Origin: Blasia pusilla | Lineage: Eukaryota | DNA: 64,000 nt | Reading direction: 5' to 3' | Assembly: GCA_050084515.1 (NCBI GenBank) | Contig: CM114271.1 | Span: forward strand, 23,126,001-23,190,000 | Shown: piece by piece, positions 887 to 25,543 of the stretch | Layout of the letters: each line of letters begins with the position of its first letter | Numbering within the stretch: position 1 is the stretch's first letter | Program-made: the position numbers and the translations under genes | Notes under the pieces: model-generated | Databases searched by the model: none | Told to the model about the DNA's origin: nothing | Seen by the model: the letters and a program-made list of their open reading frames with translations, nothing else

Positions 887-3736
887 TGAGAAAGATGTCA
901 AGGGGCTCGTGGGAATTCATTGTTTGCAGGTAGGCAAGTGAGTTGCCTCGATGGGGATTCCCTAAAGACGTTGGTTGGCATTTTGTTGTCGTTTTTCCAT
1001 TCGGAAGGCCATGGGCGGAAGCGTTGTCCGTTCTCTCAAGTTTTTGTTGGTGCAAACTGACTAGAGGCAACAGCAGAGTGCAGCGCTCAGATGTAGCGCG
1101 GAAAGTGTGAGCGACGATCGCAAGTGAGTAGCAGCAAGTGTCGGGAAACCGGAAGGAGAAGCTTAGGTCCATAGTGACCGTGAGGGCGGCCAACCTAGGG
1201 TGTAGCCGCCTAGGGCTAGGATTAGGTCGGAGGTGATGGAGCCAGGGGCCGCGAGCTGCGGAACTGCGGCCCTTGGTCGCAACCCTTCCTCCCCCTGCCC
1301 CCCCCCCGCTTTCCCCACGTGGTTGGGAGCGCCATGGTTGGCCCCTTCTCGAAGTGGTAGATGGCAGTTGGATGTGGTAAGAGCAGAGTGGATGCGGTGG
1401 AGTAAGGGGCATGGGCACCGTGGTAGAGGCGGGGCAAATGTGGTTGACAATGCGGACATGGTAGGCCGGGTGGACATGATGGAGGCACGAACGACGTGGT
1501 AGACGAGCAACCATGGTTGGGGTTGAACGTGGTTGAGTTGAGTTACATAGTGGGAGAGTTGAGTTACATACTTGGTGTTTTGCGAGCATGGTGGGATTCA
1601 CAACGGGAGTTTGGCCCTTATTACGAGTCAATTGGGGGTCGACTCTTTAGTTCTTCACCGAGTGGGATTTACGAGGGTTGTGATGGAGACACACGTGTCG
1701 ATGCCGACGGATAGTCTGCATCCATTGATGGGAGGTTTGATGTGTGTCGAGGAGAGTGTCGTGTTGCGGAGGTTTACATACCACATGGAGGAGTGAGTGT
1801 TGATGGTGCCGTAGGTTGGAGGGCGTGATCAAGTTACACATTTGAGTCCCTTTTCCCACGCTTATCTTATGTGATTGAAAGTGCTGGGTATCGGGTAGTT
1901 GCTGGGTATCGGGTAGTTTCTGAGGCTAAATAGGTGTAGCGATGGTGACGAGTGTAGTCTCCATGCATGTGTAGCATGTCTGTGGATATTCGGCAATTGC
2001 CGTGAGTGAGTAGGGGTCACGTGTATGACCCGAGAGTGTCAGTGGTTTAGGTGAGTAAGTTGGGAGGCTCATGGTGAGCTTGAGTGTTGAGTATGCGTGA
2101 GGTTGAGTGTGTCATCACCAGATTACCATAAGCGTCGGTGAGCTAGTGAAAAGTGTGGGAGACTCTTGGTGAGTCTGAGTGCTTGAGCGGGTGAGACAGG
2201 TTGTCATCACGGCATTCTTCTCGGGTTTGGAAGAACGGGGTAGTGCGAGCAGTAGTAGTGGTGTGCCACGGAGTGGAGTGAGATACCGAGGGGTTACGAG
2301 TGAGGAGCTACCTCGACATCCATCCGTGGCTAGATCGTCATCACTAGCCAGTGGGTCTGTTGACGAGATCGTAGATGGAGGCAGTGTCGCTTGGCGGGAG
2401 ATGGACGACATGGGCCACCACGGCATCTGTCATTTCTCGGGTGCAGTGGGCACCATCGACTTAGATGAAATCATCTAGGATTTTGACACGTGGTGCAATT
2501 TCCAAGAGATACGGACCTCGACACGGTTCAACCCTTTCATGGCATGGAAGGGGTTGTTCCAGCACTTGGAGGGTCCTCCGATGGATGATTACATGGAGTT
2601 TTGATCACTATATTCATTAGAGATTGATGCTTGCAGGATGCATTGGGCTCCAGGGTATGAGTCCACTAGTGGTCGCAAGGCATATGATGGGATCGTGAGA
2701 GGAGAGAGACCCACACCATCAGCGTGGAGAGTAGATGGAGAGGAGGGCAGTGAGACAGGTAATGTGGCTGAGACATTTGGTAGTAGAGGGCCACCCAGCT
2801 TCAATCCCACAGTGGAGTTCTTCTGACAGTTGGGGAAGAGCTACCAAGGCGTACACACTAACAAGCTAAAGAGTCTACAGGATTTTCAGCGACGATCGGG
2901 TGAGAGTCTGAGAGAGGCATTCACGCACATGAGGAGGTTGATCATTGCTACTTATGGAGTGATTGAGGCGTAGTCAGTCTAGTAATGGTACAGGGTTCCA
3001 GACCAAGAACTATGGAGGAGAGTTTGAGATGCGTTGCTGATTCACACAGCGAAGCCCACATTGAAGGTGATCTTCAAGTTTTTGTGAGCGTATTGAGCTC
3101 AACATGAATGAGGAGCAGGTAGTGACCGCTAGATTTTCTTGAGAGTCGATGGGTCCATGAGCGACGGTGACCCCATAGGTTCCACAACAAGCACCAATAC
3201 CACAGAAGTGGGCTAGTGTGCCTAGAGAGGAGGGCGGGTACCGTGAGCCTATGAGGCAACGACCCGTACCTACGTATGTTGCCCAACAGGGACCGATATT
3301 GTCTTGTCGAACGTGTGGAGGGGCCCATAGGCAAAGAGACTGCCCACAGCATGGGAGAGGACCACGAGCGCCTCCAATTGCTCAAGAGCCACAAAGCATG
3401 GCCCCACCACAGTACCAGTGTGACTGCCACAGATATGGTCACAGTAGGGATAGATGTTTTGACCTTCGTCGAGAGGCACGTCAAAATGTAGGCCTAGGGC
3501 CTGGGGGCAGTCATCCTGGAGGAGGTCGAGGAGTTATTCTTGGACGTGGTGGTAGAGGACCACCAGTAGTAAGAGGAGATAGAGTGGGAGCACCAAAGCC
3601 TGCACTTCTCTCACGCATCGATCAATTAGAGCAGAGGATTGCGGCCATGATGATGAAGCATCTCAAGGAAGGCACAAAGTCAAGAGTAGCTAGTGTGACT
3701 CCAACTTCCACCTCTGCCTTTGATCTAGGCGAGGAT

Positions 3737-6326
3737 TGTCTTACCAAGTAATACATGGCCAGCACACAACCCAGGTGAAAATACTGCTAGTTCCACCAGT
3801 TCGGTCCTATGCTCTTATGTCCTTTAGAAGATCAGAACTCTATGATATACTCTTTAACAGTTGTAACCCCACCTCTTTACCTTAAGAGGCTGGAGAAACC
3901 CTCTCCACTTTAGTATCACAATCCTGTCCTCACCCCATTAACCAAAACTCCTTCCATTCTCTTGAGTGCTTTGAGTGGAGTGGCCAGTGGAACCCAACAA
4001 GCACACTCTACTTAGAAATCACAGTCAAGAATGACCAGGGCAGCATAAGGTCCTCTAATGTGCTACCTTGGACTAGTTGAATGTACCAAGGAAATCCTCT
4101 AAAGCACACCCAACTCCTAACTCATCAGGTAGTGCAATCACCTTTTTCTTCTCACCGAGTATCTAGTGAGAGCTTGGGTGTAGTTGTGAGTCCTTAGATA
4201 GAGTGCTCAGTGGAAATTCAACCAGCACACCTACTCAAGGCTCACAACTAGAGACTACTAAACAACATAAGGCCATCCAATACGCTATCTACTATAATCA
4301 TCCACCCCCAGGGTAGCCTGAAAGGGGAGCAACTCTCTATTTGCTCAAACCAACACCCACATCCCTTCTTCTTCTCCTTTTCCTTGCTGGTCCTTTGTTC
4401 TCCCTCCTTGTTCAGGTAGTAGGAGACTTAACAGGCTGAGCCCATGGTCTTCTACCTATAGGGAAGCTCAAGCATGACCCTCTTTCTCCACTCACTAATC
4501 TCTTATCACTTACTAGACCTGGAAGTCCAGGTTGTCACACCCTGGAAGTAATCAGTGATTGGTGTCAAAGGCCATACTCAGGTGGGCAGAACAACAAGCT
4601 TTCAAAGCACACCTTGGAGGAGCACAATCTTGGAACCCAAGCTTGCCTCTCCTCTACTGGTATAGCCTCTTGTCCACTCACTACACGTTTGAATGATAAG
4701 TTGAACCAACTCCAAGAATCTCAATTCATCAAGCCCCCCCCCCCAAACTCATCACTCAATCATGCACAAAATCAAATACAGGGCAGTGGAGTGAAATCAT
4801 TTCACAGGGCTACTTTCTGTGTATCACAAAGTCATCGAGTACATGGGAGACCTTCTTAGTCTCAGCCCCCTTCAAGCACACTACACAATACCTAGATCTG
4901 GGAGCACATACTCTGCTGGTTAGCTTGGCTCAAGAGATCGAGTGTCTACTAGCCAACAGCATGTATGTCCCCTTCAACTAAACCAAATTGAGTATTTATA
5001 AGTGAAGCTGAGAGCGCTCTACCCACTTGGGCTTCTCTCGCATTCTGGTTTCCTACCTTCCTACAAATCTACCTCCCCCTAAGCATCTACTCCAAGGCAT
5101 CTACTGCCTGAAATTTCTACCTCATCTACTTCTGAACGTGTCCTAAATAAAGTCTCTTGAGCAGCATTGATGGCATAGGCTCGACTTGTCTCTTGGACAT
5201 GCTTGAAGGTAAGATCTACCTTTACATTCTTCCCATGCTTGCTTCTTCTCAATCTGGTTCGAGCCGTGCCCTCAGTTCACACCTCCACTTAGCTCCACCT
5301 GCACAAATCACTCCTTGGATTCTCTCAGCTCCATAAATCTCTCCCTTGGATTCTCTCAGCTCCATAAATCTCTCCCTTGGATTCTCAAGCTTTCTGACCT
5401 TCAAATGAGGTCCTCTAGGATTCATTGAGTAAGCTTCTAGCCCACAAGAGTTCAAGCATTCGATCTCAGCTCTCGTTGAGTATCCTATGCTCTTCATTAC
5501 TTGCTGAAAACTCTTCTGGGTGACCTCCATAGTGTAGAGCATCTCAAGGTGAAGCCATACCATCAATCAGATCTAGATTTGGCCAACTAGTGTTCTAGGT
5601 AGCAGCCCTCGAATAGCCTGCCCTCCTGTTTTCCAAAAATCCAGACTCCTTGCCTTTCTAATCTACCTTGAGAATTCTAGCCCAACATCCAATGTCTTGA
5701 TTCGACTATATCAGCTTGAAGAGCATCCAAAAACCTTTCCAACGAGCCCTTCAAATCACCAAACCGATCAGCCATGCTCCAACTGTCAACACCTGATTCT
5801 CCCCTCTATGTTGGCCACCAAAGCTTCGAGCTCTGATAAGGTCCAAGACAGCGAATGTGCAGCTTTCCCGGAAACTTTTGGTGTCGACTGTCATACGTCA
5901 GCCCCAGATCCCCATCCTTCACTGGATCATGCTTGATTCGGTTATCAAACCTCACCTTCCTTTGTTGCTGGACTGCCTTGATCTTCTCCAAATGCTGCCT
6001 CTCTCCTCCTCTAGTGCATAAATCATATCCAGTCTGCTATCCATGCCACCTTCAGGTTGGAAGTGCTCTTTTAGAGTATGATCAGCCTTCAACTCCAACT
6101 CTACTACCGAGAGTGGGTTCTGCCCATACACCAAGAAGTAGGGACTTTTACCTGTTGTACTCTTCTCAGTTGTGTTGTAAGCATGAACAGCTGAAGCTAA
6201 TTTCCTATCCCAATCTGATTTGTGAGCTGCCATCATCTTGGTCAAAATAGCACCAATGATCCCATTTAAATTGCAGATTGTTGTTCTAGCTCCTTCTACT
6301 CACCTAACTAGAGTCCCAAAAGTATC
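3737..6326 (-). mobile_element. Nested fragment of a different Gypsy element (integrase 3' half plus non-coding/LTR-like DNA) inside copy A
   Basis: Minus ORFs 5952-6245 (DWDRKLASAVHAYNTT..TGKSPYFLVYG) and 5806-5991 (FPGKLHIRCLGPY, a GPY/F-like motif). It interrupts the gag-PR linker of copy A. Boundaries are approximate. Confidence 0.65.
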
Positions 6327-7716
6327 TAACACACATGGGAGCCACTTATGAAGGGGCGCACAAGGATCTTGCTAGTATGGGCTTTATGTCTAGTGCGGCT
6401 CAGGTTGAGGTTGTTTTGGTGGTGACTCGGGATGAAGCGAGAAACCCTAAGCCATCGAGAGATGGAGTTGAGATTGACCCATCGGAGGGGACTGATGGGC
6501 GGCAGGCCACGGCTCCACACTCATTCATGTTGTTAGAGGCACTACACATGCCATCGATGCTGCCTCGACAACCACTAGGGCCTATAGGTTAGGCAGGTGG
6601 AGTGGGAGTGGTAGCTCCTATGCCGGCTCGAGTGGAGTCAATTTTGACCACAATGCTAGAGGTGGCCATCAGGGTGAGCTAGGCTCTGCTATTTTCCGCC
6701 ATAGAGTTGGCGATGTTGGGAGTTGGACCAGCTCAATTGTTTTGGTTGGCTGCCACGTTGTATGAGCGTGGAGAGGTGACTACCTCTTGATCAGAGATAG
6801 TTGAAGAGGTGGTGGACTTATCTACGGAGCAGGTGCTCGAGACGTCCCCCACTAAGATATGGCATGCGGCGGCGGAAAAGTTGGTAGATATGCCAGCTCG
6901 ATCGGCCATAGAGGGAGTAGTGGTAACACCTGGCATAGTGTTACTAGATAACCAAGCTGGATTATTTTGCTTGGTTAGTCCGACGGGGACAATGTACCAC
7001 CCGCAGCGCGTCCTACTTGATTCGAGAGTGCAGCCCTTGATGTTAGGGAAGGCGGCGTGTTTAGCGTTGGGGTTACAAAAGGCCGAATTTGAGCCTTGTC
7101 CCTTCCAAATATAGACCTCGATTGGGGGCGTGTCACGGACGCAGTATATGACTCGACAGGATATAGTTTTCAGAGTCCTACCAGAGCATGAGATAGATAG
7201 TGCTATGGTGCGCACACGTGCAATTACGACACCAGTTGAGTCGTACGATGTGTTGGTGGGGAGGACCGTATTATATCCCCTAGGATTCATCCTTGACTTC
7301 AGGGAGGAGACCGTTGCTTATCGACTAGGGTGGAGGTCAGGTGACGGACGGATGAGTTAGTTATCCGTACAGTTTGTCGGGACGAGGTGGTCGACCACAA
7401 AATGAGTATGTGACCACGTTGGCAGCTTTCATAGGTAGTGTTAGCTGGCCATGAGAGTTGTTGGAGGGGAATGCACATTCTGAGGATGTCCTAATAGAGG
7501 ATAGTCTGACGCAAAGATAGGCCATGGTGGATGTCTCTTCCCATGTTGGTGAGACCTCTTCACCATTATGGGGTACGACTCGAGAGCTACAGAGGAGTGC
7601 CCACGACCTTGTGAGGCAAACGTGGAGTCATGACTTTATCCCGGAAGAGCGAGCGTTAGGTGGCGATCGGCTCTTGGAGTGGAGACGTTGACACCATCAG
7701 ATATCACACCTAGTGT

Positions 7717-8700
7717 GGCAGTGTCCAGCGGAGGATGTTAGGGTGTTAGATCGCTTTAGAGGGATTAGATGCGGTGTTGCAAGCGGGCATACGGATGCAT
7801 CAATACCTTTATGTGGATAGAGATAAGACCGCGCGGCCAATATCATTACGTCATATGGCAAGATTGGTCCAGAGGTATCTTGAGTTGTTGCCAATATCAG
7901 CACTATGAGGGTATGAGCATACACTACCCGCGGACATCTCTTTGGTGGGGGCGCAGGATCTGGATAGAGTTGGCACCATTCATTTGGTGATTGTTGGATG
8001 GCCATATCAGGGTCATTCAATAGCTGACCAAGGGTTTCGATTGCACGATCTGAGGTCAGGGATGTTTTGGGAGATGCAATGAGAAATGCAACACTTGGAG
8101 GAGAGTCAGACATGTTCTCCGGCGTACATTTTGGAGAACGTGCCGTTATTGGGAGACACTCATGCACGTGTGATGACAAGTATGCATCAGGTGAGGTCCT
8201 GATTAGGACTTGCTGTGTTGTTAGATGCTGCGCGAGTTGGAGCACGCACCCACCGTCCATGGTTATGGTGGACAAACTTGATACCATCCTAGGTTTAGAG
8301 TCGAGCATATGATGGATTTTAGAGAGCACGACATCTCACAGTGGATGCTATTTTGGGCTCAAGGTGTCAATCTCAAGTGGTGACGCGGTATGATAGACCA
8401 CTGTTGGTGATAGCCAATAGGATGGGGGAGTTGAGGGCAACCTTACCTACATTGGTGAGCTTCCCAGCATCCCATGCCTTTTGTCAAGGAGGGTCAGGCA
8501 TGATTTGGGATGAGGTGACCTGAGCATTGGAGGAGCCTACAACAGATGAGCGCAACTCGCCATGGGGTTCGCTACAAGTACTACGATGGTGCCAGGTATG
8601 ATTGAGGCATGACGGAGATAGGTGCTGGGGCAGGTAATGGACCTCAATTGTCTTACTTGGATAGTCAACCTAGGTATGGCTGAGCAGAGACAGATGCGAG
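7717..8700 (+). pseudogene. Decayed DNMT3-like C5 methyltransferase domain of copy A
   Basis: Hand translation gives WQCPAEDVRVLDRFRGI (motif I), IVGWPYQGHS (motif IV; catalytic Cys codon is TAT at 8005-8007), YILENVP (VI), ERNSPWGS/MGF frameshift region (IX) and VLGQVMDLNCL (X). Confidence 0.85.
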
Positions 8701-10305
8701 TGTCATCCATCCCGTCACGTCCACGAGTTGGAGCATTGCCTACAGGGTCTCTACAGGCATTGGCTGGGGGTGGGACGAGTAGAGATAGGCACCCATGGAC
8801 TTCCTGGGATGTCATTCGAGGGGAGAGTGCAAAAGCGGCCCGAGGAGCACATGTTCAGTTTTTGGATGCAGAGCATGGTGTAGGAGGTTAGAGTGGAGTG
8901 GTTATTGCGGAGGTGGAAAGGGTTGCTACATAACAACCAAAGCCGGAGGTTGCATCCTCTCTAAGTGAGGTCACGATGGAGACTTGGGAGCCTATGATAG
9001 ATCTCAAGTTGACAAGAGGAGAGCAACATCGGATTCATAGGTTTCTAAGAGGGCATGTCAATCGTTTTCCTTCAATATGAGAGACATCGGTACACTGAAG
9101 GGTCTCGGTCCTTAATCTTTCGTCGACCCTACAGGTATTCTGATATGGAGCGAGCCTTGATTTAGAGCATGAGTCAAGACTTGTTGGAGGCAGGACTTGT
9201 GGAGTTATCACATGGGGAGTATACATCTATCACAGTCATATTGGCGAAGAAGGATATGTATGGCAATTGGACAGATAGGCAGATGTACGAGAGGATTACT
9301 AACCTATCAATCGACAGACAAAGTGGGATTGATATGCCATGCCTACTCTTGAGGAGATCTTTGATGCGGTAGGGCATGCAAAGATCTTTAGTACTTTAGA
9401 TCTCCATGCTCGCTATCATCATCTTCCTATCAGGTTGGAGGACAGGGAGAAGACACCATTTTGGGGGATAGATCGATTTGAGAGAGATTGTTTGTATCAG
9501 TGGCGGTTCTTACCATTTGGGTTGAAGAACATGCCTGGAGAGTTTCAGAGAGTGATGGATAGGATTCTGGTTGGCTTGGATTTGTGCGGTATTACATAGA
9601 TGATATTCTTATCTTCAATTCCACGGTTGAGGAGCATGAGCGACACCTGGAGGAGGTGTTTCGGAAATTGCAATTACATGGACTGAAGTTACATCCAAGC
9701 AAGTGCAGATTCTTTTTGGAGCAGATTGAGTACTTGGGACAGACCATATATCTGAGTGGGTTAGGTGTTAAGCAGATAAAGGTGGAGGCACTAGTAGAAA
9801 AAGGGTCATTTTAAACCCATATCATTGTGACTCGTGTTACTTAGAGTCATTTTAATTACTCTTAGTTACTCCGAAACCGACATTGTGACTCGAGAATTAC
9901 TCACACGGTAGGGGAGTCACAATTTGAAACTTATATAACAACATCAAAACATCTAGGAAGCCACTTTAACTTGTATATCAATATTTAAAACCCAGCCATG
10001 TAATGAGCAAAATGAACATTTTATTTCTTCTCTCCATCTTCCAAAGAATGACCTGGATCATTTAACCTACAACTACAATATTATGAAAAAAATGACTAAA
10101 ACTTGTTAAAAGATAGAGAAAAAAGTTACGAAGGTAAGGGAAATAGGGTTTAGGCCCTAAACCCTCTTGAGGTTCAAAAACCCTAACATCACAAGCCCGC
10201 GTCGGCATTTCCCCCTCCCCCATGCCCCAACTCTCTATCTCTCTTCCAGCTTGTGACAGGTCGAGCTTTCTTTGATAGGCTGCATACGAGGCAAGGCAAG
10301 GTAAG

Positions 10306-10479
<174 letters not shown>

Positions 10480-11740
10480 GATATCAAACAAACAAGTTCA
10501 GATATCACAAAAATATCCTGTACAAAAAAATCCCTCCTCAATATGTATGGTGACTTCTTTGTATACTTATTTTTGAACTACTCTTTTGTACTTTAGTAAA
10601 TATTTAGGGTATTCACTTGAATGGAGAGAGAAGTTTTGTTGTCACTGAATACCGGGCTGTTGTAGCCTTGTGCACCATGGAGAGAGAAGTCTTAGGAATG
10701 TAACATCCTTCATGTCTCTGGATGGCATCAGAGTGATGGCGGGTGTTTCTTTCCAACCAATGGTTCAAAACGAGTCAGGGTACTTTTTGTCCAGATTAAG
10801 GAGCCTTCCTTTTGAAGTGAAGGTGAAGATCTTTATCATGAACGGGCCTACTAGTCTCTTGGACCGTATCCTTGCCCTCCCATAATCTACAAGGACAAAC
10901 ATTTGTTACTTTCATGCTTACTCTGACCGTTATTGGACCCCAAATAGGATACAAAGGCACATTAGGAATTGGCTATTCCGCTTAGAAGATCACCACGTGT
11001 ATGTGCGATTTGTAGACATTATTATGTGGAGGGAGGATAGAGGAGCACTATTAGCATGGCTAATGCTTGGGGTCATCCGCAAAGTCACTCTTCATATCTA
11101 TCATGATGCAGGGGGGAATTCTCCCTAGGGAGGATCATCCCATTGTTAGGAAGGCACAAGCCATCATTGAATATGCGCGTTCTATTGGTGGCCACACAGT
11201 AGAGGTTACTCTTGAGTATTGTAATACTTGGGAAGTAGTAACCTCGGGGACTTAGTATGCATTTGCTCAAGTCGTAGAACAATTTCTAGGAAAGTTTTCA
11301 TATGTTGCCTAAACATATGCCGTCATGTTTACAATTCCAAATGTTATCCGTGGATCCATGGTTGCCAATCATGAATTGAGTCACCGTTATTTGTCTTCAT
11401 TGATGGAATTGGGTTTATTTTGAGGGGTCATGGTGTGTGTACACTCTTGACCTTGGACGATAAAAGACGCTATTACGGGGATGTATGCAACCAAATAATT
11501 AATAAGAAGTAATGATTTCTGTAGAAAGAATTGCTTCTTATGCTACTTAACTTTAACTTGTTCTATGTACAGGTACAAACGGTTTGACTATTGGAAATCC
11601 GAGTATCATGAAGGCTAGAGGTAACCTCCACATGCACTGACATCCATTTTATAGTTTTTTTTTCCATGCCTGAATCATGGACATTCAAGATCCATTGAAT
11701 TTCTACATCTAATAGTAATCTTATTGTCTTTTATCTCAAA

Positions 11741-12421
11741 ATGTGGAGTAACCAACGTACAAGGATGGCCCGCCCAAAATACCAGGCCAAGAAAACCTCC
11801 GAGGTGAGCACTTATGCGCCATATAGTGCACTCCAAGTTCTGCAGAAGGCAGCCCATATTTGTGCAATCTGTGATGATGGGGAAGACCTGGTTGTTTGCG
11901 ACGGGCCTTGTGCTAGACACTTCCACGCAATTGCAGAATCAGCAGGGGCTATAGAGAACTCTTGTCCAGGGGTCAACCTCCAACCAAACCACGAAGGGAG
12001 TTGGTTGTGCCAAGATTGTGTGAAGAAAATGGCCAGGTGTACCAAGTGGGGTCTAGAGGGGAGTTTTGCAAAGAGCGAGGATTCTGGGGTTCGTGTGAGA
12101 AAGTGCCCATATACCTTTTGTGTGAGGTTTTTTTGCTTTACTTGTTTGCCTACGGGAGTGGAGTCTTGCCCCATGCAATATTTCCGAGAATGCCATAAGC
12201 ATGATGAGGAGTTGTGGGAGGACATGGTCTATTGTACTAGGTGCCCCACTGCATGGCATTGGACTTGCTTGAAGAAGGCTATGAGCAAGGGTTATGCATA
12301 CGATTGGATTATATATGACCATGCTGCATGTGGTGAGGATAGGTGGTGGTTCTATTGCCACCAGCACAAAGTTCATCCCACACTTCACACTCCTTTGAGA
12401 GATCATATTTCATGGATTTGA
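11741..12421 (+). CDS. EDM2-like composite PHD-finger protein exon inside the CACTA region (possibly decaying)
   Basis: CAICDDGEDLVVCDGPCARHFH...CQDC, followed by further Cys/His clusters CPYTFC..CFTC, CP....CHK, CTRCPTAWHWTC and YCHQH...TPLRDHI. Some ligand positions appear substituted. Confidence 0.7.
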   Translation: MWSNQRTRMARPKYQAKKTSEVSTYAPYSALQVLQKAAHICAICDDGEDLVVCDGPCARHFHAIAESAGAIENSCPGVNLQPNHEGSWLCQDCVKKMARCTKWGLEGSFAKSEDSGVRVRKCPYTFCVRFFCFTCLPTGVESCPMQYFRECHKHDEELWEDMVYCTRCPTAWHWTCLKKAMSKGYAYDWIIYDHAACGEDRWWFYCHQHKVHPTLHTPLRDHISWI

Positions 12422-13090
12422 TTTTCAGGTAGGCGGATGAGAGATTTATGTCTGAACATAATGACGTGGCATTTTGGTGGAGAGTGCAGGGTAGCCACTT
12501 CTGATGTAAAGAGGGTTGAGGCTCTAAACATGCTTACTAGGTAGGTGGTATGACTTTGTATAGAGACTCGTCATTACCTACCCTCTGATTTTGAGAGTTC
12601 CAATCTTTTGAAATTTTGATCGAACGGCCATAATTGCGAAACTATATAATATCACGTTTTGTATCAACATTATGCAGTTTTTTTGTTATGGAAGAATGAA
12701 ATGTAATCGTGGTGGTTTCTAAAAGACTCTTGTAATTAGGCTCTTGATTAGGATATGTCTGGTTGTAGGTGGAATTCTGTATTCATTCGTCATCCATTGC
12801 CATATCCAATCATGCAAGTATAGCTTTAGAGCTAGGTAGTCCATCATGGAAAACCATTGGCAATACAGTACCAATATGAGAATTGTTGAGCTTCCCCCAC
12901 TCCCAAGTGGCGATGTCTCTAAAGTGTTAATCTGTTATGAGACCTCACCCAAATGCGCATCGGGTACGATGCCAACCTCTCTTTTTGCAAGAATTGTAGC
13001 CTGCATCATGGCCTCCCCTGAATTGCCCCATGATGAATGGTGTCGACTTAAGACAAACTTTGTGAAAGCTTTCCCAAGCTCAAAGATGAT

Positions 13091-13410
13091 GTGGCAAAAT
13101 TATTATGCGATTTGGAGATCCATTTTCCTCCCGCCTTCTTTGATGTCATGACTCATCTCGTTATCCATGTTGTGGAAGCGCTTGGACAGTACGGGCATGT
13201 TTATACGAGGTGGATGTTCCCACTGGAGCGTTTTATGAAAGTCTTGAAAGACCATGTCTTGACAAGATACAGGCCTGAGGCCAGCATGGCAATGGGTTAC
13301 ATTTCACACAAGACCTTGGGATATTTGACAGAGTATATGGCGGGGTTTGAACATGTGAAGGCCAAGATATGGCAAGTGGAGGAAGATGAGGGAGTGGTAG
13401 GTGAAGTTAG
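13091..13410 (+). pseudogene. CACTA transposase DUF4218-type fragment
   Basis: LCDLEIHFPPAFFDVMTHLVIHVV...RWMFPLERFMKVLKDHV..RYRPEASMAMGY is a typical Tnp2 C-terminal motif. The fragment is cut at 13410. Confidence 0.9.
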
Positions 13411-16400
13411 TGTTGTTCGGAGATGTGTTAGGCGCTTTATGCATCTCAGGTTTTTGGTTGATGTACCTCTAGCCCATAGTACGGTGTAGCCTCTCCATGC
13501 AGGTGATATTTTCAGGTGCTGCGAGTCCGACTAGCACGTCATCGACCCGCGGCGGAGTAGCTATTGCGTTAGAATTGTGTGGTGGGTTTTGTGGATACAG
13601 GGGGCGCCACGTTTGGTGGATTATGTTACCTTGATTTCCATTTGCGATTGGAGGATTGTCGTTGGCCTTCCTGTGTTGGATCCCCTCCATCGTTGCTTCT
13701 TGCTTGCGCGCCCATTGTTAGGGTTGACGCTGATTTCCAAAGAATGTGTTACTCCTGTGTGCTACCGGTAGTGAGGCTGGAGTGATGACCAGTAGACCGT
13801 GGGAGGCTTCTTGTGGTGATGACAGGTTAGGTTGCCTACACCCATAGCTAGTAGAGCTAGAATAGTATAGCGACATTGACGTCACTTGGTTACTTAGTGG
13901 TGATAATTTGGTGGTGGTGCGGCATTGGCGTTGGTCATCACGGAGCTATCGGGTGGTCTGGTTGGGGGCCGTGGTGCGGACAGTGGTGGTTTCACACGGA
14001 GTGGATTTAGGTATCGGCTAACTTGTCCACTTCCGACGGTTGATGAAGAGGAGGACGAGGGTGTTCCAAACACCGAGTCTCCTACGTTGTTATCGAGTGT
14101 TGCAGCTCCATTGATTTGGGACATGGACGGGATATATGGGGCCATGAAGGGCCCACAACGATACTCAGGTGCAGTGGGCACCATTGAGTTGGAGGACTTC
14201 ATGCAAGAGTTTGATATGTGGTGTGATATGCAGATGTTGCGGAACGCCACGTTGTTTACACCCTTCTTGGCTTGGAAGGGGTTGTTTCAGCACTTGGAGG
14301 GACCACCCATGGATGATAACCATGAGTTTCGGGAGGACCATGTTGCTGAGATTGAGGCGTGGAGACAATATTGGTCTCCAGGCTATGTGTCTATCACCTA
14401 TGGTGGTATTGGTAGTAGTGCTCCTACTAGGCCAGCCAGCCCGACGTTGAGTGGTACGAGTACGAGCCGGAGTAGGGGTACCAGTGGAGGTACCCATGGA
14501 GGTACCAGTGGGGGTACTTGTGGAGGTACTAGTGCCCCACCATCATTTAGCCCGGTTGTAGAGTTCTTCAAGAGGTTGAAGAAGAACTATCAGGGAGTGA
14601 AGAGAGAGAAGTTGAGGAGTTGAGGAGTCTTCAAGAATTTGAGCGAAAGAATGGTGAGAGTCTTCGTGAGGCATACACTCGTATGAGATGCTTGATTTCA
14701 GTTACCCAGGGTGTGACTGAGGCTCAGTCAGTTCAGTTTTGGTATGGGATCTTGGATAGAGAGTTGCGCCGCAGGGTACGTGATGCTACTCTTATGAGTG
14801 ATGATTCACCCACATTGACCCATGTGTTTGCTCTATCTGAGAAGATTGAGCTTAACATGGTGAAGGAGAGAGTGGTGACATCCGCATTCAGTAGGGATAC
14901 AACTACTACTTCTCGTGTTCAGCAGCCCACCTCACAGTCTCGTAGTACTGGTGGTGGTAGTAGTAGTGGGAGTCGTGGAGTGTACACACGACCTCAGTCA
15001 GGTCCTAGAGGGACACTTGCGCAGAGACCATTGCCTTCATTTGCTGCCCCGCAGCAAGGACAGTCATGTTGGACATGTGGAGGTGATCATGTTAGGAAGT
15101 TTTGTCCCCAATAGCATGGGAGACGGACTTTGGAGGATGGGCCTCAGTCGGCACCAACTCAGTGTGATCATTGCAGGAGGCCAGGTCATCCTCGAGAGCG
15201 TTGCTTTATCTTCATCCAGAGTTGAGATCAGGCCGCGGCTGTGGTGGAGTAGCTCCAAGAGGCCGAGGTGGTAGGGGTGGTAGAGGTGGACCAGTGGTTG
15301 GAGAGCCTACGGTGGCCACCCCTACCACTACGACAGAGTCAGCTATGGCTGCCAGGATTGAGCAGTTGGAGCAGAAGTTGGCTACTGTGGTTGGTATCCA
15401 ACATAGATCAAGTTCGGGAGGAGGGGCTTCCACCTCTTATGGAGGGGATGATCTCTCTTATATGGCGAGTGCAGCACATGTTGAGGCATGAGCTACAGTT
15501 ACGAGAGGAGCCACTCGAGCGTCAGAGCCAAGTGGTGCTACTGTGGAGTTGGACCCACAGAGGGGTGAGGCTGGGAGGCAGGCTAGGCTTCCCCAGTCAT
15601 ACTTATTGTCTGAGGTGCTGAGGACTCCATCCATGGTTCCTATGTAGCCTATTGAGCCGACAGTGGGGACTGAGGCATCTATATCGCGTGTAGTAGACAC
15701 GGATGCAACATCTAGTGCAGTATTGCGGATGGCAACTTCAGTGTTGGGATCCCCATTGTTTTCGGCCACAAAGCTGATGGCTTTAGGAGTTGACTTTGCT
15801 CCTGTATTTCAGCTAGCAACCACGTTGTGTGAACGTGGGGGTGTTACTGCTACAGGTGCTGAGGTGGATGAGGGTGTTGCGGTGGAGCGACCCTCTATGT
15901 CAGGTGTAGCATTGAGTACCAGTGCTACTTGGCAAGCAGCAGCGGCGAAGATGGATGCATTACCAGCCCCGCCAGCCATTGATCGTGAGAGGCTTACACC
16001 TGGTGTATGTATGTTGGACAACCGGAGTGGGATATTCCGATTGGTGAGTCCTACAGGACAGGTGTATAGACCATATAGAGTCTTGTTAGACTCTGGTGCC
16101 CAACCTTTGATGTTGGGAAAGGCGGCATGTATTGGTTTGGGTATTCGGAGGTCAGAGCTTGAGCCTTGCCCATTTCAGATTCAAACATCACTTGGAGGAG
16201 CCAATGATGGGTCTCAATTCATGACATGGGAGAAGTTTTCTGTACAGTTGAGACCAGATCATGCGACTAATAGCTCCCGATTGGGAGTATCTGCGGTAGT
16301 CACATCAGCCGAGTCGTATGATGTACTAGTTGGAGGAGCAGTATTGTACCCAATGGGTTTTCAGATGGATTACTGGACTGAGACAGCGTCTTATAGACCT

Positions 16401-16817
16401 GGTTGGCAGTCCGGGGATGGACGTATGATCCATGTTCCTGTGAGATTTATTTATGGGGCTCGACCAGGAGGGTCTTCCCCAACAGTGTTAGCATCTGTGG
16501 CTGGTTTTAGTGGAGTAGTCACTTGGCCAGGAGACTTTTTGGAGGGTAATGTTTCTCCTATGGATTCTCCTATGCATGAGGAGGTAGAGGAGGTCCCTAT
16601 TTTTGCAGCAGTGGCATCCTCATCGTTGGATGTGCCACTTTGGAGTTCACGCGGTGCACTACGGCAGGAGGCTAATCGACTAGTGCAGGAGGCTTGGTGT
16701 GAGGCTGTTATACCTCACGAGGAAGAGGAGGCCCCACGGCGGACTCCTACTTCCGGTCCAGTTGGGTTATCCCCTTTGGATACTACACCCATTGTATGGC
16801 AGTATCCGCCGGAGGGC

Positions 16818-17790
16818 ATTTGTGTGTTAGATCTCTTTGGTGGGATTAGCACTGGTTTGGCTGCAGTGTTGCAGGTCGGTATTCTTGTGCGGAGATACGT
16901 GTATGTAGAGCGAGATAATACGGCCTAGAGAGTCTCATCCTGACATATTGGTCAGTTGATGCGGAGATATCCTGAGTTGTTGCCGCCATCAGTTATTCGT
17001 GGGTACCAGCGTGCTTTGCCGTCACACATTGCATTGTTGGGGGCGTAGGACCTTGAGAGGGTTGGCCCTGTGGATTTGGTGATTTCTGGATGGCCATGTC
17101 AGGGTCATACACGTGTTGGTCGTGGTGAGGGATTACACGACCCTAGGTCTCGATTGTTTTGGGAGATGTTACGGGTGTTACGACATCTTCAGGTTCATCA
17201 GGCACGTGCTCTAGCTTACATTCTAGAGAATGTTCCATTGTTGGGTGACACTCGGACCCGGATGATGCCGAGTGTTCATGAGGTGCGGTCTTGGATTGGA
17301 CCAGCGGTGTTGTTGGATGCAGCGCGAGTTGGCTCGCGTGCACATCGTCCACGCTTGTGGTGGACAAACTTGTTGCCTAGGGAGGTTCTACGTCGAGCAT
17401 ATGATGCAGTGCAGGGGGATCCTTGCCTTACAATGGATAGTATCTTGGATACTGGGCGACTTTCTCAAGTGGTGAGGGTTATTGATCGGTCACCCATGGT
17501 AGTGGTGAACCGTGTGGGCCAACCTAGGATGGCACTATCCACATTTGTGAGTTTTCCCTCGTCACATGCATACAAGGAAGGTGGTCTCGGGCTTGTACGG
17601 GATTCTCATGTGCGACAGTTGGTGGAGCCTAACGCTGATGAGAGAGAGCGTGCGATGGGATTTGCTACTAGTGTGAGAGCGGTTGCTTCCATTTCTGAGG
17701 CTTCACGACATCATGTGTTGGGTCAGGCCATGGACCTGAATTGTTTGACTTGGATTTTGAGTCTTGGTATGGCCGAGCACCGTCAACTCC
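16818..17790 (+). pseudogene. DNMT3-like C5 cytosine methyltransferase domain within pol of copy B
   Basis: Motif I VLDLFGGI, II YVYVERD, IV ISGWPCQG (Cys codon 17097-17099), GLHDPRSRLFWEM, VI YILENV, VIII RAHRPRLWWTNL, IX ERERAMGF, X VLGQAMDL. Three in-frame stops at 16926, 16941 and 17046. Confidence 0.93.
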
Positions 17791-20700
17791 GGACTATGTT
17801 TGTGGGTCTTCCACCCCTTGTAATGAGTTCGATGGCTACCGGGACGGTAGAGGCATCGGCTGGGGGCGAGGAGAGTAGTATTTTGCATCCTTGGAGTAAA
17901 TGGGATGTAATGGCTGGGCATGTGGAGTTGGTTGCTCATGCTGGTGGAGGAGTTATTTGCTCAGATGATGGTGTAGCTAAGGGTGTACCATCTTGTGAGG
18001 GGGTTGCGTAGCAGCCAATGGCATCGTCCTCTCCCTCTAGTGTGCCAGTGGAGGAGACTTGGGAGCCATTACTTGGGCCCAAGCTTACGGGAGGTGAGAA
18101 ACGACGTTTGACACAGTTCCCACGTGCTTATAGGAGTTGTTTTGCCTTTAGCATGAAGGAGTTGGGTTCTCTGGTGGGACCTGATATACTGATTGATTTG
18201 GCTAGTGATACGCCAATCTTCCGTCGTCCCTACCGATATAGTGATATGGAGAGGGACCTGATTCAGAGTAGGACGTTGGACCTTTTGGAGGCTGGATTAG
18301 TGGAGTTGTCGCATGGAGAGTATGCATCAGCCACTGTCATGCCTGCTAAAAAGGATATGCATGGCAACTACACGGATAGGCGGATGTGTGGAGATTACCG
18401 GCCTATCAATCGGCAAACCAAGGCCGATAGGTATGCCATGCCTACACCTCATGAGATCTTTGATATGGTGGGACAAGCAGAGATTCTCAGCACTTTGGAT
18501 CTTCGGGCAGGATACCATCAATTGCCGATTCGGGAGAGTGACAAGGCCAAGACAGCATTTTGGGGTGTCAACTCTCATGGCAAGGATTGTTTGTACCACT
18601 GGAAATTCTTACCCTTTGGGTTAAAGAATGCACCAGCCGAGTTTCAGAGAGTGATGGACAGGATCCTAGAAGGGTTGGATTTTGTTTGGTGTTACATTGA
18701 TGATATCTTGGTGCTCAGTAACACGGTGGAGGAGCATCAGATACATTTGCAGATGGTGTTTGAGCGGTTGAAAGCTCATGGTCTACGTTTGCATCCAGGA
18801 AAGTGTAAGTTCTTCCATGAGGATGTTGAGTACTTGGGTCATGTGATCTATCCAGGTGGTTTGGAAGTTCAACAAGCAAAGGTGGAGGCTATTGCACTTA
18901 TTCCGCGTCCGGTAGATGTGAGTAGAGTTCGAGCATTCATGGGATTGGCGAACTAATATTAGAGGTATGTGAAGGGATTTAGTGCCATGGCAAAGCCTTT
19001 GAACCAATTGCTGAAATCAGATCAAGAGTGGCATTGGGGAGATGATCAGGAGAGAGCTTTTGTGGAGCTTAAGGCCAAGTTGGTGGCGGCGCCTATCTTG
19101 AGGAGATCTATCAGAGGGCGCCCATTTCAATTACACACTGATTGGAGTAGTTTGGGACTTGGAGCGGTGTTGACACAACATGATGATGAGCACATGGAGT
19201 TTGTGGTGGCCTATGCAAGTCGTTCGAATAATGCATCGGAGTTGCGCTATAGTTCATATGAGGGAGAGTGCTTGGCAGTAGTGTGGGTTGTGGCACACTT
19301 TAGGTGTTACTTGTTTGGCACACAGTTTACCCTTGTTACTGATCACCAGCCGCTCAAGTGGTTGATGGAGTCTGACAAGCTTACAGGGAAGCTTGCACGG
19401 TGGGCTCTTATCTTACAGGATTATGACTTCTAGGTGGTACATAGACCTGGAGTTGCCAACCTTGATGCTGACGGGTTGAGTAGGAACCCATGTACTAGCC
19501 AAGAGGATACAATTGGGGCTAGATGGCATGGCGAGGTTGATGAGGAGATGGTGCCAGGTTGGCATGCATCCGCCTTTTTATGTTGGTTAGAGGTGGACTC
19601 TAGTATGGAGGACCACATGATATCTTACTCTAGTCAGAGGGTAGATGGCCAGCCTTCAGATCCTAAGGTGGGAGATGGTGGTACGGATCAGCGTGATATT
19701 CATGATGATGCGTTGGTGTTGGAGTTCCTACGGACCAGTAGGGTGCCAGGCATAGTGTGTGCCAAGGAGCAAGACCATGTTCTTCAACGTGCTAAGAGGT
19801 ATCAATTGGAGGGAACACATATTCTCCGTGTGTTGGAGGATAGTAGAGTACGAGTAGTGCCGCATTTGGCTCAGAGAGAGTACATTGTGCGACATGCCCA
19901 TGAGGAGTTGGGACATTTTGGGGTAAAGCGTACGTATAGCTTACTCCTTGGTCAGTATTGGTGGCGTGGCATGCATACTCAGGTGCAGCAGTTGGTGTCA
20001 TGTTGTATGGTTTGTGACCGGGTGAGGGCATCATTCAATGCCCCTACACCACAATTACACCCCTTGCCTATTATGGGGTTGGGTTACCGTTGGAGTGTGG
20101 ACTTTTGGACCCGTTGCTGTTGGTATTGCGACATCATCGATATGTGTTGGTGATGGTGGAGCACTTCTCCAAGTGGATTGAGTTGGTGGCATTACCTGAC
20201 AAGGCAAGTGAGGGAACGGCGTATGCGTTTCTTGATAGAGTGCTTAGTCATTTTGGTGCACCAGTTGAAGTGCTGACCGACCAGGGTACAAAGTTTCAGG
20301 GTGAGTTTCAGGTCTTGTGTGACAAGGCGTTGATTGATCATCGGACCACGTCTCAAGATCATCCAGAGGCATATGGTTTGGCTGAGCGTGTGGTTCAGAC
20401 GATGAAGAGGGCATTGCGCAAGTATGGCCTACAGAAGGGGCATCTTGGTGACAAGGATATTCAGTTGTCATGGTTAGCCATGGGGTATAGGTTCAGTCGC
20501 CAAGCATCCTTGGCTTCCTTCTCACCTTATTTTCTATTATACGGCCAAGATCCAGACTTGCCAACAGCAATTCGTCGGGAGTCTAGTGAGGTGGTGAACT
20601 TTGATGACCCAGAGATGTGGATGAGGGTGTGTTCTCAGCGGGCAGAGCTCTTTCGGAGAGTTATGACAACAGCCTTTGAGAATCTTGCCATTGCTCAACA

Positions 20701-20995
20701 TAGAGATACGTTGCGGTATGCAACCATTTGGGGTGGAGGTTATCGACCATCGATTCGTAGGTTCCATGTGGGGGACTATGTCTATTTGCAGCAGATTGCA
20801 CCGACAACCTTGGATGTGACGGCAGACCGCACTATTTTACGAGTGCGCGAGGTGTTAGCTTCTGGAGTTCTCATGTTCGAGGGTCGTGATGGAGTTGTTT
20901 GGAAGGACCATGTGCGTAATTGTGCGCCATGTCATCTTCCAAATGTGGATGGTACTGTTGACCCAAGCTTAGCCATGATACGTGCTAGCTTGAGG

Positions 20996-21133
20996 TGCAT
21001 GTTGTGTGGGTCTGCTGGTAACGCAGCCCGTATGTTGGTGTGTGATCGTTGTTCTAGGGGTTGGCACATTATGTGTTTGACTCCACGTATGGATGTTGTT
21101 CCTAGTGGAAGGTGGGTTTTTCCTCGATGTACT
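20996..21133 (+). other. PHD finger at the integrase C-terminus of copy B
   Basis: CMLC...MLVCDRCSRGWHIMCLTP....PSGRWVFPRC follows the C4HC3 pattern, with the penultimate Cys replaced by Phe. Confidence 0.85.
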
Positions 21134-21417
21134 TAGGAGAGGTAGATGACTTGATCTTTGCATGATATGGATTATAGATGTGCGACTAACGATGGAGCAA
21201 CCTAGCACCCGGCCTTCTGATTCGTGCACCCAAGAAGGTGTATAGCATGTAGTAGATGTATAGGGCTACCTAGGAGTTAGAGAGACCTAACCGCCAGTTA
21301 GGGAGGCGAGTTGTGGTACACTTGTGTTTGTGAATGCTCTCGTCTATGTTATGTATGTATGTGAGTATGGTATGTCAGCGATGTATGTTGTATGACGATG
21401 TGGATTCGCACGACAGT

Positions 21418-21764
21418 TGTCATGACCATACGGATTATGTCGTAGAGTATAGTGTGCTAGTAGAGGCCATACCTTATGTAGGGCATGGTGTCTAAGGTAG
21501 AGATGCGATTTCATACATAGGGTTGGGGGTTACTCAGTTGAGGGTGAGCTTTCCAGTAGGGCCCGCTCTTAGGTTGGAGGATATATGGTGGAGTGCACTC
21601 AAAGAATAGTCAGTTCTTTGAGTTGAGCCTGTTGCGTTGGGAGCTAGCCTTAGTAGTGAGTAGAGCTCTTTGCTATGGTATTTCCCGCAAGCTTCGACCT
21701 AGATTCTCCCGTCGTGGAGTAGGTTTGGCTTGATTGTATGTGATTCTATACGTGTTTTATGACA
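21418..21764 (+). repeat. Candidate 3' LTR of copy B
   Basis: Termini TGTCAT...ATGACA are inverted. The start is at the position equivalent to the LTR start in copy D. No second copy is present to confirm it. Confidence 0.5.
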
Positions 21765-21927
21765 GTAGGTCTTTCACGGATTTCAGTTGTGGTACACTTG
21801 TGTTTGTGGATGCTCTCGTCTATGTTATGTATGTATGTGAGTATGGTATGTCAGCGATGTATGTTGTATGACGATGTGGATTCGCACGACATCTTTCACA
21901 GCCGGGTGACTTGTTCAGGAGGAGCAA

Positions 21928-22202
21928 TAAGAGGAGAGGAAGAGAGGAAGAGAGGAAGAGATGAGAGAGGAGAGAGGAAACTACCTTCAACCCAAAGAGA
22001 TATTTTTTTTGAAGAGAGTTTCCTTTGATTTGAAGAGAGTTTCCGTTGGGTTGAAGAAGGAAACTTTGGTCTGAATTTTTTGCATTTTTGTTCTCAGTGT
22101 TTAAGCACTCCAACAGAATTTTTTTTCCTCTTCCATATTTTGGCAACCCACCTGAATCCGACGGGTTGCAATTTGCACAAAATTTTAAAAACTAAAAAAT
22201 CA
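21928..22202 (+). repeat. Terminal fragment of the MULE-like family (homologous to 36925-37201)
   Basis: About 275 bp near-copy: TAAGAGGAGAGGAAGAGAGG...AAACTACCTTCAACC...CCGACGGGTTGCAA. Confidence 0.85.
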
Positions 22203-22209
22203 AATCACC

Positions 22210-23505
22210 TCTATGATGATGAAATGGTTGTTGATGAAAGTGGGACTGAGAATATTAACCTCAATAAAACCAATGATCCCAATATCCCATCTGATTTTCA
22301 GGAACTTGCTGCAGCATGCAAGCCACTCTTCCTAGGAGCGAAGAGTTCTTTATTTGCATTTGTTATGCTCCTTTTCAATGTTGGTGCTACCCATGGGGTC
22401 CCCAATATTGTAATTGATGAGATATTGAAACTCCTATGTAAGATGGTACTCCCATCTGAAAATCTTGTCCCACCATCATACTATGCAGCAAATAAACTCA
22501 TTAGTAAACTTGGTTTGAGCTAAAACTCTATACATGCGTGCCCTAAAGGGTGTGTTCTATTTCGAGGGGAATTGGAAGATGGAGAAAATTGCCCAAAGTG
22601 TGGGAATGCTAGGTTCAACCAAGTCGGGAAATCTTTAGTACCAAACAAGGTATTGAGACACTTCCCTATAATCCCTAGGATGCGGCAAATGTATAAGTGT
22701 AGGGCTTTGTCAGAGTTATTGATCAAATCTTCCAAAAACAAGAGTAAGGATGGCATGTTGAGGCATGTAGGAGACAGCAAGGCTTGAAATCATATTGATT
22801 GTTTATACCCAGACTTTGTTGTAGAGAGTAGGAATTGTAGGTTTGGTTTGGCACTTGATGGTGTCAATCCATACTCTGATAAGGCTAGCTCATGGTCAAC
22901 ATGGCCAATCCTATTGGTTAATTACAATTTGCCAGCTTGGCTTCAAACCAAGAAGTTTTTGTCATGTTGGCTCTTATCATACATGGCAAGGAGAGTGTGA
23001 ATGGAGAAAATATCAACACTTTTTTGGCCCCCTTGGTAGAGGAGTTTAGGGAGTTGTGGAATGGAATTGAATTCCAAGATGTTTGTAGACCACACAGGTA
23101 TTTGGGGTTCAAATTTAGAGCCATGATATTGTGGACTATAAATGATTACCCAACATATGGCACAATCTCAAGGCAAAGCCATGGTGGGACACTCGCGTGT
23201 ACAGTATGTGGACCTTATATGCATTCGTATTTCTCCAAACTATGTGGAAAGCCCATATTTGGTTGCCATCGAAGACATCTTCTAGTAGACCATGTTTGTA
23301 GAGGACGAGCTTACGGCTTCCAATTCAATGATGAAGGAGAAACTAGACCAGCGCCTCCAAGAATTACAATTGATCAAATTCTTAGATGGGCGGAGGAGAA
23401 AAAACATATGATGACAAAGGTGTTTGAGAGGATGCTCCTACTAATCCATACAAGAGGACGGGAGTGAAGCGGCGAAGTATTTTGTTTGATTTTCCATATT
23501 GGAAA
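22210..23505 (+). pseudogene. CACTA Tnp2/Transposase_21 catalytic region, disrupted
   Basis: IHACPKGCVLFRG, CPKCGNARF, KVLRHFPIIPR, LALDGVNP, STWPILLVNYNL, FLAPLVEE, LWTINDYP and CTVC motifs, with stops and frameshifts. Confidence 0.92.
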
Positions 23506-25267: not shown

Positions 25268-25543
25268 ATTCGTGTAGGAGATAATGTTAAACTCACCAAG
25301 CCCAAGCTCAACAATACAATTATGGGTAGTGGTGTTGTATCGGGTTTGATTGGACAGGAAAAATTTCACGGGAATGACATTCCACTTGGGTTGATGCGAG
25401 TGGATCTCAAGTTTGTCCAATTTGCGTTCTTGGATCATAAGTTATGGCAGTAAAATGAGGCTGACATGTCATCCCAATACACTTTGGGTAACGCTCTTGG
25501 AAGTTCACTACTTTGGCCTAAAGTAAATTTGAAGAAATTATAG
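25268..25543 (+). pseudogene. CACTA Tnp1/TnpA-like C-terminal exon
   Basis: IRVGDNVKL...GSGVV...FHGNDIPLGLMRVDL...LGSSLLWPK after a TTGCAG acceptor. One internal stop. Confidence 0.5.

Follow-up and report, generated by a model that had tools for sequence, protein, structure and literature searches.

A small EDM2-type PHD gene, decaying in a repeated and probably CACTA-borne unit of Blasia pusilla

At 11765-12421 of a 64,000-nucleotide stretch of Blasia pusilla DNA (GenBank assembly GCA_050084515.1, contig CM114271.1, positions 23,126,001 to 23,190,000 of the forward strand; hereafter the window) lies what looks to be a degenerating copy of a small, intron-less gene, housed in a moderately repeated unit that is most likely a CACTA (En/Spm-type) family. 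The product of the gene would be a short basic N-terminus followed by an EDM2-type module and nothing else: three NSD-like fingers and a tail ending RDHISW. Our best explanation, which we hold with somewhat better than even confidence, is that the gene is repeat-borne, probably CACTA-borne, that it encodes a reader still functional at the level of the family, and that the copy in the window is dead. The gene and its parts are these:

11765-12421, + strand: stand-alone open reading frame of 218 codons plus stop, counted from the family's conserved start MARPK
11861-12019, + strand: PHD finger 1, codons 41-93, all predicted ligands present; placed by alignments and by PHD-1st_NSD in the window copy and its relatives
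12038-12178, + strand: PHD finger 2, codons 100-146, predicted ligands lost through C103W and H146Q
12182-12406, + strand: variant PHD finger 3 and EDM2-type tail, codons 148-222, one predicted ligand lost through C148F; PHDvar_NSD matches

The sequence-only reading had marked 11741-12421 as a Cys/His-rich coding stretch, and it is one: an open frame with homology to EDM2 at E 2e-19. The plus strand is open from stop to stop over 11699-12421 (240 codons in the ORF listing), and the first ATG, at 11741, yields the 226-residue product P0001 (11741-12421, +, a 226-codon frame). The start is probably the second ATG. It lies at 11765, where the conserved family start MARPK falls. In 17 of 19 genomic reads from sister copies an additional A follows 11744, so that the 11741 ATG runs straight into a stop while the MARPK frame stays open; hence our choice of 11765. 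The far end is equally well shared. The P0001 frame ends four codons past its RDH motif, at a stop common to the small-protein family, and homologues of 187-245 residues have in common both the start MARPK and the end DHISW-stop. We aligned 13 small proteins of 131-245 residues, nine of which span the module (P0005 included, with its frameshifted C-terminus) and four of which are truncated or frameshifted. Their basic N-termini begin M-A/T-R-P/K-K, and their C-termini are DHISW-stop or lie within a few residues of it.

Because the relatives share start and stop, the frame is a complete, stand-alone, intron-less gene. The word exon, used of it in the sequence-only reading, has to go. Frameshifted or truncated ends in four of twelve relatives (P0005, P0007, P0009 and P0013) are as would be expected of decaying repeated copies. 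Where do such proteins come from? Among the clusters looked up, no member of the small PHD-only family belonged to an annotated proteome; the sources were Logan, JGI/IMG and ENA assemblies, in contigs of 1-13 kb.

By BLASTP, residues 40-225 of P0001 align with residues 224-432 of Arabidopsis thaliana EDM2 at 26% identity (E 2e-19), and Marchantia Mp2g00350, a protein of 1628 residues, is matched at 35% identity (E 1e-25). A word-indexed search with P0001 found three proteins of 220-245 residues (47-56% identity) and, at the word level, no longer homologue among its 115 candidates; an exhaustive profile search did recover them. With a profile of four sequences run against 1.84 billion representatives, 328 proteins matched at E<=1e-3, 167 at <=1e-10 and nine at <=1e-30. 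Most of the long matches have 1200-1300 residues, of which residues ~220-435 align to profile positions 41-226. Their clusters go by the name ENHANCED DOWNY MILDEW 2 (Mangifera, Neltuma, Selaginella), and EDM2 of A. thaliana (P0158) sits in the cluster of one match, P0072. A pattern search of metagenome contigs had 178 matches, of which none was confirmed.

The module is, on these alignments, an EDM2-type composite PHD module, just as the sequence-only reading had it. EDM2-type matches and small relatives have the same Pfam order, PHD-1st_NSD then PHD_NSD then PHDvar_NSD. On P0001 itself the Pfam scores are all sub-threshold: PHD_2 reaches 21.8 bits against a cut-off of 28, PHDvar_NSD 19.1 and PHD-1st_NSD 18.7 against 27. 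Among solved structures, the profile matches NSD2 residues 651-800 (E 2.2e-6) over three consecutive fingers, at profile positions 24-180 only, and AIRE PHD1 at E 1.7e-4, finger 1 being the one that resembles AIRE PHD1. The EDM2 match takes in the whole PHD region end to end, including the tail past the three fingers as far as residue 432; since the match to NSD2 goes no further than profile position 180, the part that follows finger 3 is a feature of the EDM2 type and not of NSD proteins. The comparison proposed between EDM2 and the NSD-family PHDs comes out on the EDM2 side, at E 2e-19 with the shorter match to NSD2. AlphaFold, given 17 sequences, models the protein with confidence from residue 30 onwards (mean pLDDT 82.8, pTM 0.78). 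With this model, Foldseek finds only PZP domains (JADE1, BRPF1) and NSD PHD-C5HCH tandems, at whole-model TM scores of 0.2-0.3, and a protein atlas search finds NSD-like PHD clusters only.

EDM2 and its ELP relatives in land plants are thus the closest known proteins, having in common with the small protein the composite PHD region with its tail (EDM2 224-432) and the same finger order. The differences lie on either side of the module. The C-terminal part of EDM2 holds a methyltransferase-like region. At the other end, the EDM2-type proteins P0018 and P0048 carry a DNMT1-RFD-like domain that P0001 and five small relatives lack; the ORF has only some 40 residues ahead of PHD1. The long C-terminal part of EDM2/ELP proteins with its methyltransferase-like region (PMC3632883) has no counterpart in the ORF, which stops after RDH. 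The small protein is some 220 residues all told, falls in a clade of its own and is borne on a multi-copy repeat. The NSD1/2/3 proteins are more distant: three consecutive fingers match NSD2 651-800 and the fold search finds their PHD-C5HCH tandems alongside PZP domains, but the small protein has neither SET nor PWWP, the match ends at profile position 180 and the whole-model TM is 0.2-0.3.

Around the gene, the features that matter are the following:

9789-9805, + strand: CACTA-type terminus (CACTAGTAGAAAAAGGG), left end of a DNA-transposon fragment, starting where the homology between retroelements A and B stops
9806-9940, + strand: subterminal repeat zone, with TTGTGACTC at 9825 (+), 9883 (+) and 9922 (-), within 135 bases of the terminus
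10634-12911, + strand: repeat unit holding the ORF, of roughly even genomic depth (summed WGS depth 24-68x per 134-base bin)
12912-13031, no strand assigned: piece of a different, more abundant repeat, 120 bases, depth 290x (bin 12912-13045)
13067-13387, + strand: CACTA-transposase exon fragment (DUF4218), Pfam E 5.4e-24 for the frame 13052-13489, depth 54-56x
13410, + strand: left break of retroelement B, which closes the stretch; 678 reads have other sequence before 13410

Is the gene repeated? Reads from a ~1% sample of WGS run X12 (same species label; 1966 million letters) were mapped to 10500-14500 at a likeness of at least 85%. Their summed depth is 12x over 10500-10633, rises to 24-68x over 10634-12911 (30-59x over the ORF itself) and climbs to ~1000-1300x from 13448 on, in retroelement B. 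The DUF4218 piece, at 54-56x, is ORF-like in depth, and behind 13031, 327 reads run into a common other sequence. Only 50 of the 10,285 mapped reads, over the whole 4 kb, are at least 99% alike to the window, so the depth of a unique copy is at most ~2x and the ORF-bearing unit must exist in at least ~20 copies, a figure whose true value depends on genome size. The question of single copy or many, which the sequence-only reading had left to be checked, is thereby settled for many: 24-68x stands against a unique-copy ceiling of ~2x, and the PHD ORF is multi-copy. Repeated sequence flanks the ORF for ~1.1 kb on the upstream side and ~0.5 kb on the downstream side, giving a unit of at least 2.3 kb, and because these non-coding flanks are repeated around it, the ORF travels in something larger than itself. 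Many copies are a CACTA feature, and a depth of 24-68x agrees with that as far as copy number goes.

What, then, is the larger unit? Both landmarks named in the sequence-only reading, a CACTA left end at 9789 and a DUF4218 fragment (now placed at 13067-13387), are there on either side of the ORF. Retroelement A runs from a gag-like region at 2436 through reverse transcriptase to 9789. Its 9114-9789 aligns with 18215-18889 of retroelement B at 71%, and the alignability ends exactly at 9789, where CACTAGTAGAAAAAGGG begins. Subterminal short repeats, another CACTA feature, are present: TGACTC/GAGTCA occurs four times in 152 bases at the terminus against 0.75 per kb in the window, a ~35-fold enrichment. 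(CACTACAA, with four occurrences for 2.45 expected, is uninformative.) Taken together, 9789 has the anatomy of a CACTA end inserted into retroelement A. The ORF lies 1976 bases inside this terminus, with the DUF4218 fragment 646 bases downstream, both on the plus strand. The fragment corresponds to residues ~144-291 of seven relatives of ~300 residues, and is the only part of 13052-13489 similar to them; elsewhere in the window these relatives have no match. A (TC)n microsatellite of ~83 units lies at 10308-10473, between terminus and ORF.

A second case of linkage probably exists in a diverged organism. P0010, a PHD-family ORF, and P0192, one of the 21 relatives of the DUF4218 fragment, were each found on one ENA contig only, in both cases 13,432 bases long and from the same source, with identities of 40% and 50%. 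The two would therefore sit on one contig.

The rest of the element is elusive. At element ends one expects CACTA-type inverted termini of the CACTAGTAG type with 3-bp target duplications. The 17-mer at 9789 found only itself in the window within three mismatches. Its nearest partner is CACTATAAGAAA at 26866 on the minus strand, with two mismatches in twelve and a non-matching flank; 26855-26866 is also the one 12-mer match accompanied by subterminal repeats. No continuation of retroelement A is present on the plus strand of the window, and neither a right end nor a target-site duplication could be read. The window holds no second copy of 9789-13410 by blastn, no intact transposase for the 9789 terminus and, by relaxed tblastn, no other transposase remains near the DUF4218 piece; ten small flanking frames have no Pfam match at E<0.05. 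The proposal that the gene sits inside a CACTA element accordingly stands in part. A terminus stands 2 kb before the gene and DUF4218 0.65 kb after it, with no right TIR, target duplication or intact transposase found. Against carriage, too, are the foreign repeat piece between the ORF unit and DUF4218 and the drop in depth to 12x at 10500-10633, on the side of the terminus. We regard CACTA carriage of the PHD ORF as likely, judging from this arrangement.

Further along is a second CACTA-like fragment, 22029-26866 (+). It has Transposase_21 at 22788-23000 (E 1.5e-18) and 22922-23467 (E 3e-27), frameshifted N-terminal frames and no DUF4218. Its 3' zone is rich in GAGTCA and in ATGACT (14 of the latter within 367 bases, where the window as a whole has 1.16 per kb), and it closes at 26866 with the reverse complement of CACTATAAGAAA. 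Could 9789-26866 be a single element that retroelement B interrupts? We rejected this, since retroelement A does not resume past 26866, the three bases on one side do not agree with those on the other, and Transposase_21 would come after DUF4218. The canonical CACTA transposase order puts Transposase_21 before DUF4218. Here the Transposase_21 remnant (22788-23467) lies 9.4 kb past DUF4218, an order opposite to that of one gene.

For transcription we turned to three stranded RNA runs that share the species label. Depth is 14-26x at 11840-11973, with the sense reads at 11844-11942, and 0-4x at 12108-12375. Over the PHD ORF the first mate is on the minus strand in almost all reads, which for a plus-strand ORF means sense RNA in most stranded libraries. 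Nine differences in 11857-11931 are common to all of the reads (four synonymous, five conservative, the ligands untouched), and at a likeness of at least 99% to the window copy there are none (0 of 292, 0 of 211 and 0 of 396 across the three runs). At 11844, 11942 and 12093 the reads leave the window sequence, their loose ends collinear but diverged, with 20 of 30 positions agreeing at each when compared by eye; those at 12377 do not resemble it (9 of 30). Because the RNA reads share fixed differences and none is 99% alike, it is a paralogue that is transcribed, the window copy not detectably so. To judge from the reads, this paralogue is diverged, intron-less, transcribed in sense and different from the window copy at its 3' end. 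It could be a host gene. A check for spliced transcripts, proposed at the outset, returned no spliced joints over the ORF in the RNA reads, a result that says little about the window copy since the reads stem from the diverged paralogue.

The first rival is a host multigene family of duplicated nuclear genes, of which the window copy is a pseudogene in transposon debris with a CACTA end and a DUF4218 piece as unrelated neighbours. We think it unlikely. Genuine host genes would explain a paralogue transcribed on the sense strand and a conserved start, stop and set of ligands, yet P0005, P0007, P0009 and P0013 are frameshifted or truncated, as in decaying repeats, and among the clusters looked up no member turned up in annotated plant proteomes, though those same proteomes gave EDM2 relatives. 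The surroundings cut both ways too. The right end of the supposed element is absent, the foreign repeat at 12912-13031 parts the ORF from the DUF4218 piece and the window is a patchwork of broken elements, all of which suits unrelated neighbours; a probable second pairing of PHD ORF and DUF4218 on one contig does not. The non-coding flank, ~1.1 kb upstream and ~0.5 kb downstream, is repeated at ORF depth and at least 85% alike, which is unusual in a gene family.

The copy in the window is in poor health. The zinc ligands were predicted from alignment to PHD and NSD models rather than from structure, and an alignment of 17 sequences has 14 invariant Cys/His columns, with eight others at least 90% conserved. 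P0001 deviates from its relatives at three of the >=90% columns, with W103, Q146 and F148 where they have Cys, His and Cys; the first two are predicted finger-2 ligand sites and the third a predicted finger-3 site. The family consensus has the full set of eight Cys/His ligands per finger, and the window copy has it in finger 1 alone. This bears on the Cys/His layout quoted in the sequence-only reading, which is present in P0001 for PHD1 (CAICDDGEDLVVCDGPCARHFHA), for C.RCP..WH..CL (CTRCPTAWHWTCL) and for the tail YC..H...TP.RDH; its CP.H.C..C element fails here, reading CPMQYFREC with His changed to Gln and Cys to Phe.

Genomic reads from sister copies have T at 12049 in 45 of 45 cases, turning TGG (Trp) into TGT (Cys), and T at 12178 in 58 of 58, turning CAA (Gln) into CAT (His). 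At 12236 they have C in 45 of 45, changing T166 from Thr to Pro and restoring the family's YCPRCP. These read states were taken from 40 of 665 variant rows, codon 148 not being among them, and among those rows W103, Q146 and T166 are private to the window copy. Since W103 and Q146 are private and the sister copies keep the ligand, the window copy is a decaying member, while the family consensus retains the fold. It is most likely inactive.

Captured host fragments are common cargo in the DNA transposons of plants, CACTA elements among them. Could this be another, taken by a CACTA element from some EDM2-like gene or cDNA of the host in a Pack-type capture and carried passively, free of function? 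We rate such transduplication as less likely again than a host family. The intron-less module and the ligand-destroying changes of the window copy speak for it, but the losses at W103 and Q146 are private to this copy (among the variant rows listed), and members 40-60% apart in sequence keep the same start, the same stop and nearly all 24 predicted ligands.

The tree is no kinder to passive capture, the family falling outside any host EDM2 clade on a long stem of its own. The maximum-likelihood tree holds 62 module sequences, the best 62 of 108 full-length matches, nine near-duplicates having been dropped first. In it all eight small proteins fall together (SH-aLRT 100; the tree is unrooted), on a stem of 1.7 changes per column. 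They stand apart from the clade of EDM2 orthologues (liverworts, lycophytes, a fern, angiosperms) and also from a second liverwort clade of 620-770-residue proteins with a C-terminal module. A weak join (82) links the small clade to two short Miscanthus proteins, where the program flags possible long-branch attraction. Because the small proteins form their own long-branched clade, a recent capture of host EDM2 is rejected and they are an old, separate lineage; since the tree is unrooted, no donor can be named. The phrase captured host reader in the sequence-only reading therefore finds no support in the sense of a recent capture of EDM2. The 620-770-residue proteins are those of the liverworts Riccia, Marchantia polymorpha, M. 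paleacea and Calypogeia (P0014, P0022, P0041 and P0060), each with an EDM2-type module at its C-terminus; in P0014 and P0022 no Pfam domain was detected over the 400-500 residues ahead of the module.

A chance open frame, or an unrelated generic PHD finger, could appeal to Pfam matches of the window copy that all fall under the curated cut-offs, but E 2e-19 to EDM2 over 186 residues already refutes it, 167 library proteins at E<=1e-10 and a model with mean pLDDT 82.8 and pTM 0.78 point the same way, and we give it a negligible chance.

We return, then, to a repeat-borne and probably CACTA-borne reader. Kept intact across deep divergence, carried on a repeat and transcribed from at least one paralogue, the family presents the EDM2-type reader module as a free small protein. 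The intact protein would enter the nucleus and dock on histone H3 tails with heterochromatic marks, as EDM2's PHD module does. We know of no solved structure of EDM2 against which the binding residues could be checked. AIRE PHD1 reads unmethylated H3K4, and a finger 1 resembling it would fit transposon chromatin. EDM2 is reported to bind H3K9me2 and, in the ASI1-AIPP1-EDM2 complex, to let transcripts cross intragenic heterochromatin (PMC9910501), and its PHD repeat to bind histones in a modification-dependent way (PMC3632883). By analogy, the intact small protein would be a transposon-encoded heterochromatin reader serving the element, not the host. It may promote transcription or full-length RNA of silenced copies, shield them from re-silencing or steer insertion into heterochromatin. 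One sharper version we offer tentatively, as a possibility well short of even: the accessory gene of an old CACTA lineage may be a free-standing EDM2 reader that docks on H3K9-methylated silenced copies and plugs into, or competes with, the host's ASI1-AIPP1-EDM2, so that long transcripts finish.

There are partial precedents. TnpA is the accessory protein of En/Spm, the founding CACTA element, and an epigenetic activator of Spm. Together with VANC of VANDAL elements it supplies no more than a working analogy, each being the second, non-transposase gene of a DNA transposon and acting on the element's epigenetic state. Both bind DNA motifs of their own element, whereas the PHD module would read histone tails. 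Mobile elements with readers of histone marks exist as well, in the chromoviruses with their chromodomain integrases; these are retroelements and have the reader as part of the integrase, whereas the PHD reader has a small gene to itself, apparently in a DNA transposon. In Arabidopsis, VANC acts on the epigenetic state of its VANDAL element (PMC10398659). Known counter-silencing devices of plant transposons are few, VANC being one and a microRNA of a rice CACTA element another (PMC12973397). A full-text literature search, outside which lie the Pfam-domain supplementary tables of PMC12973397, brought up no account of a transposon with an EDM2-type PHD gene. If our reading is true, a transposon family with its own reader of heterochromatin marks, built from the module that the host uses for read-through, would be a new class, and a plant DNA transposon would possess a counter-silencing device based on a histone reader. 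A compact EDM2-type module of 220 residues would also lend itself to structural and binding studies.

The retroelements around the gene deserve a word of their own. Retroelement B (13410-21927, +) has gag-like and protease-like frames, a C5 cytosine DNA methyltransferase (PF00145, E 3.7e-8, 17049-18011), reverse transcriptase and integrase, with a PHD finger (PF00628, E 5e-8) at the integrase C-terminus. LDLFGG, at the end of the frame before PF00145, resembles the first conserved motif of such enzymes. The element is found at a depth of ~1000-1300x, ~20 times that of the PHD-ORF unit, with sense RNA at 8-59x. Retrotransposons with DNMTs are described from dinoflagellates and the charophyte Klebsormidium in PMC5890265, which makes no mention of liverworts or Marchantia. 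Element A (2436-9789) shares the methyltransferase region, its 7700-8383 resembling 16779-17475, and a third relative of A and B, at 46349-47647 (-), consists of an integrase region ~70% identical to 19692-20995. Straight after retroelement B, ahead of the transposase remnant, comes a 275-base purine-rich segment (21928-22202) of AGAGGA repeats followed by GGAAACT/AGTTTCC, and it recurs at 36925-37201 with 88% identity.
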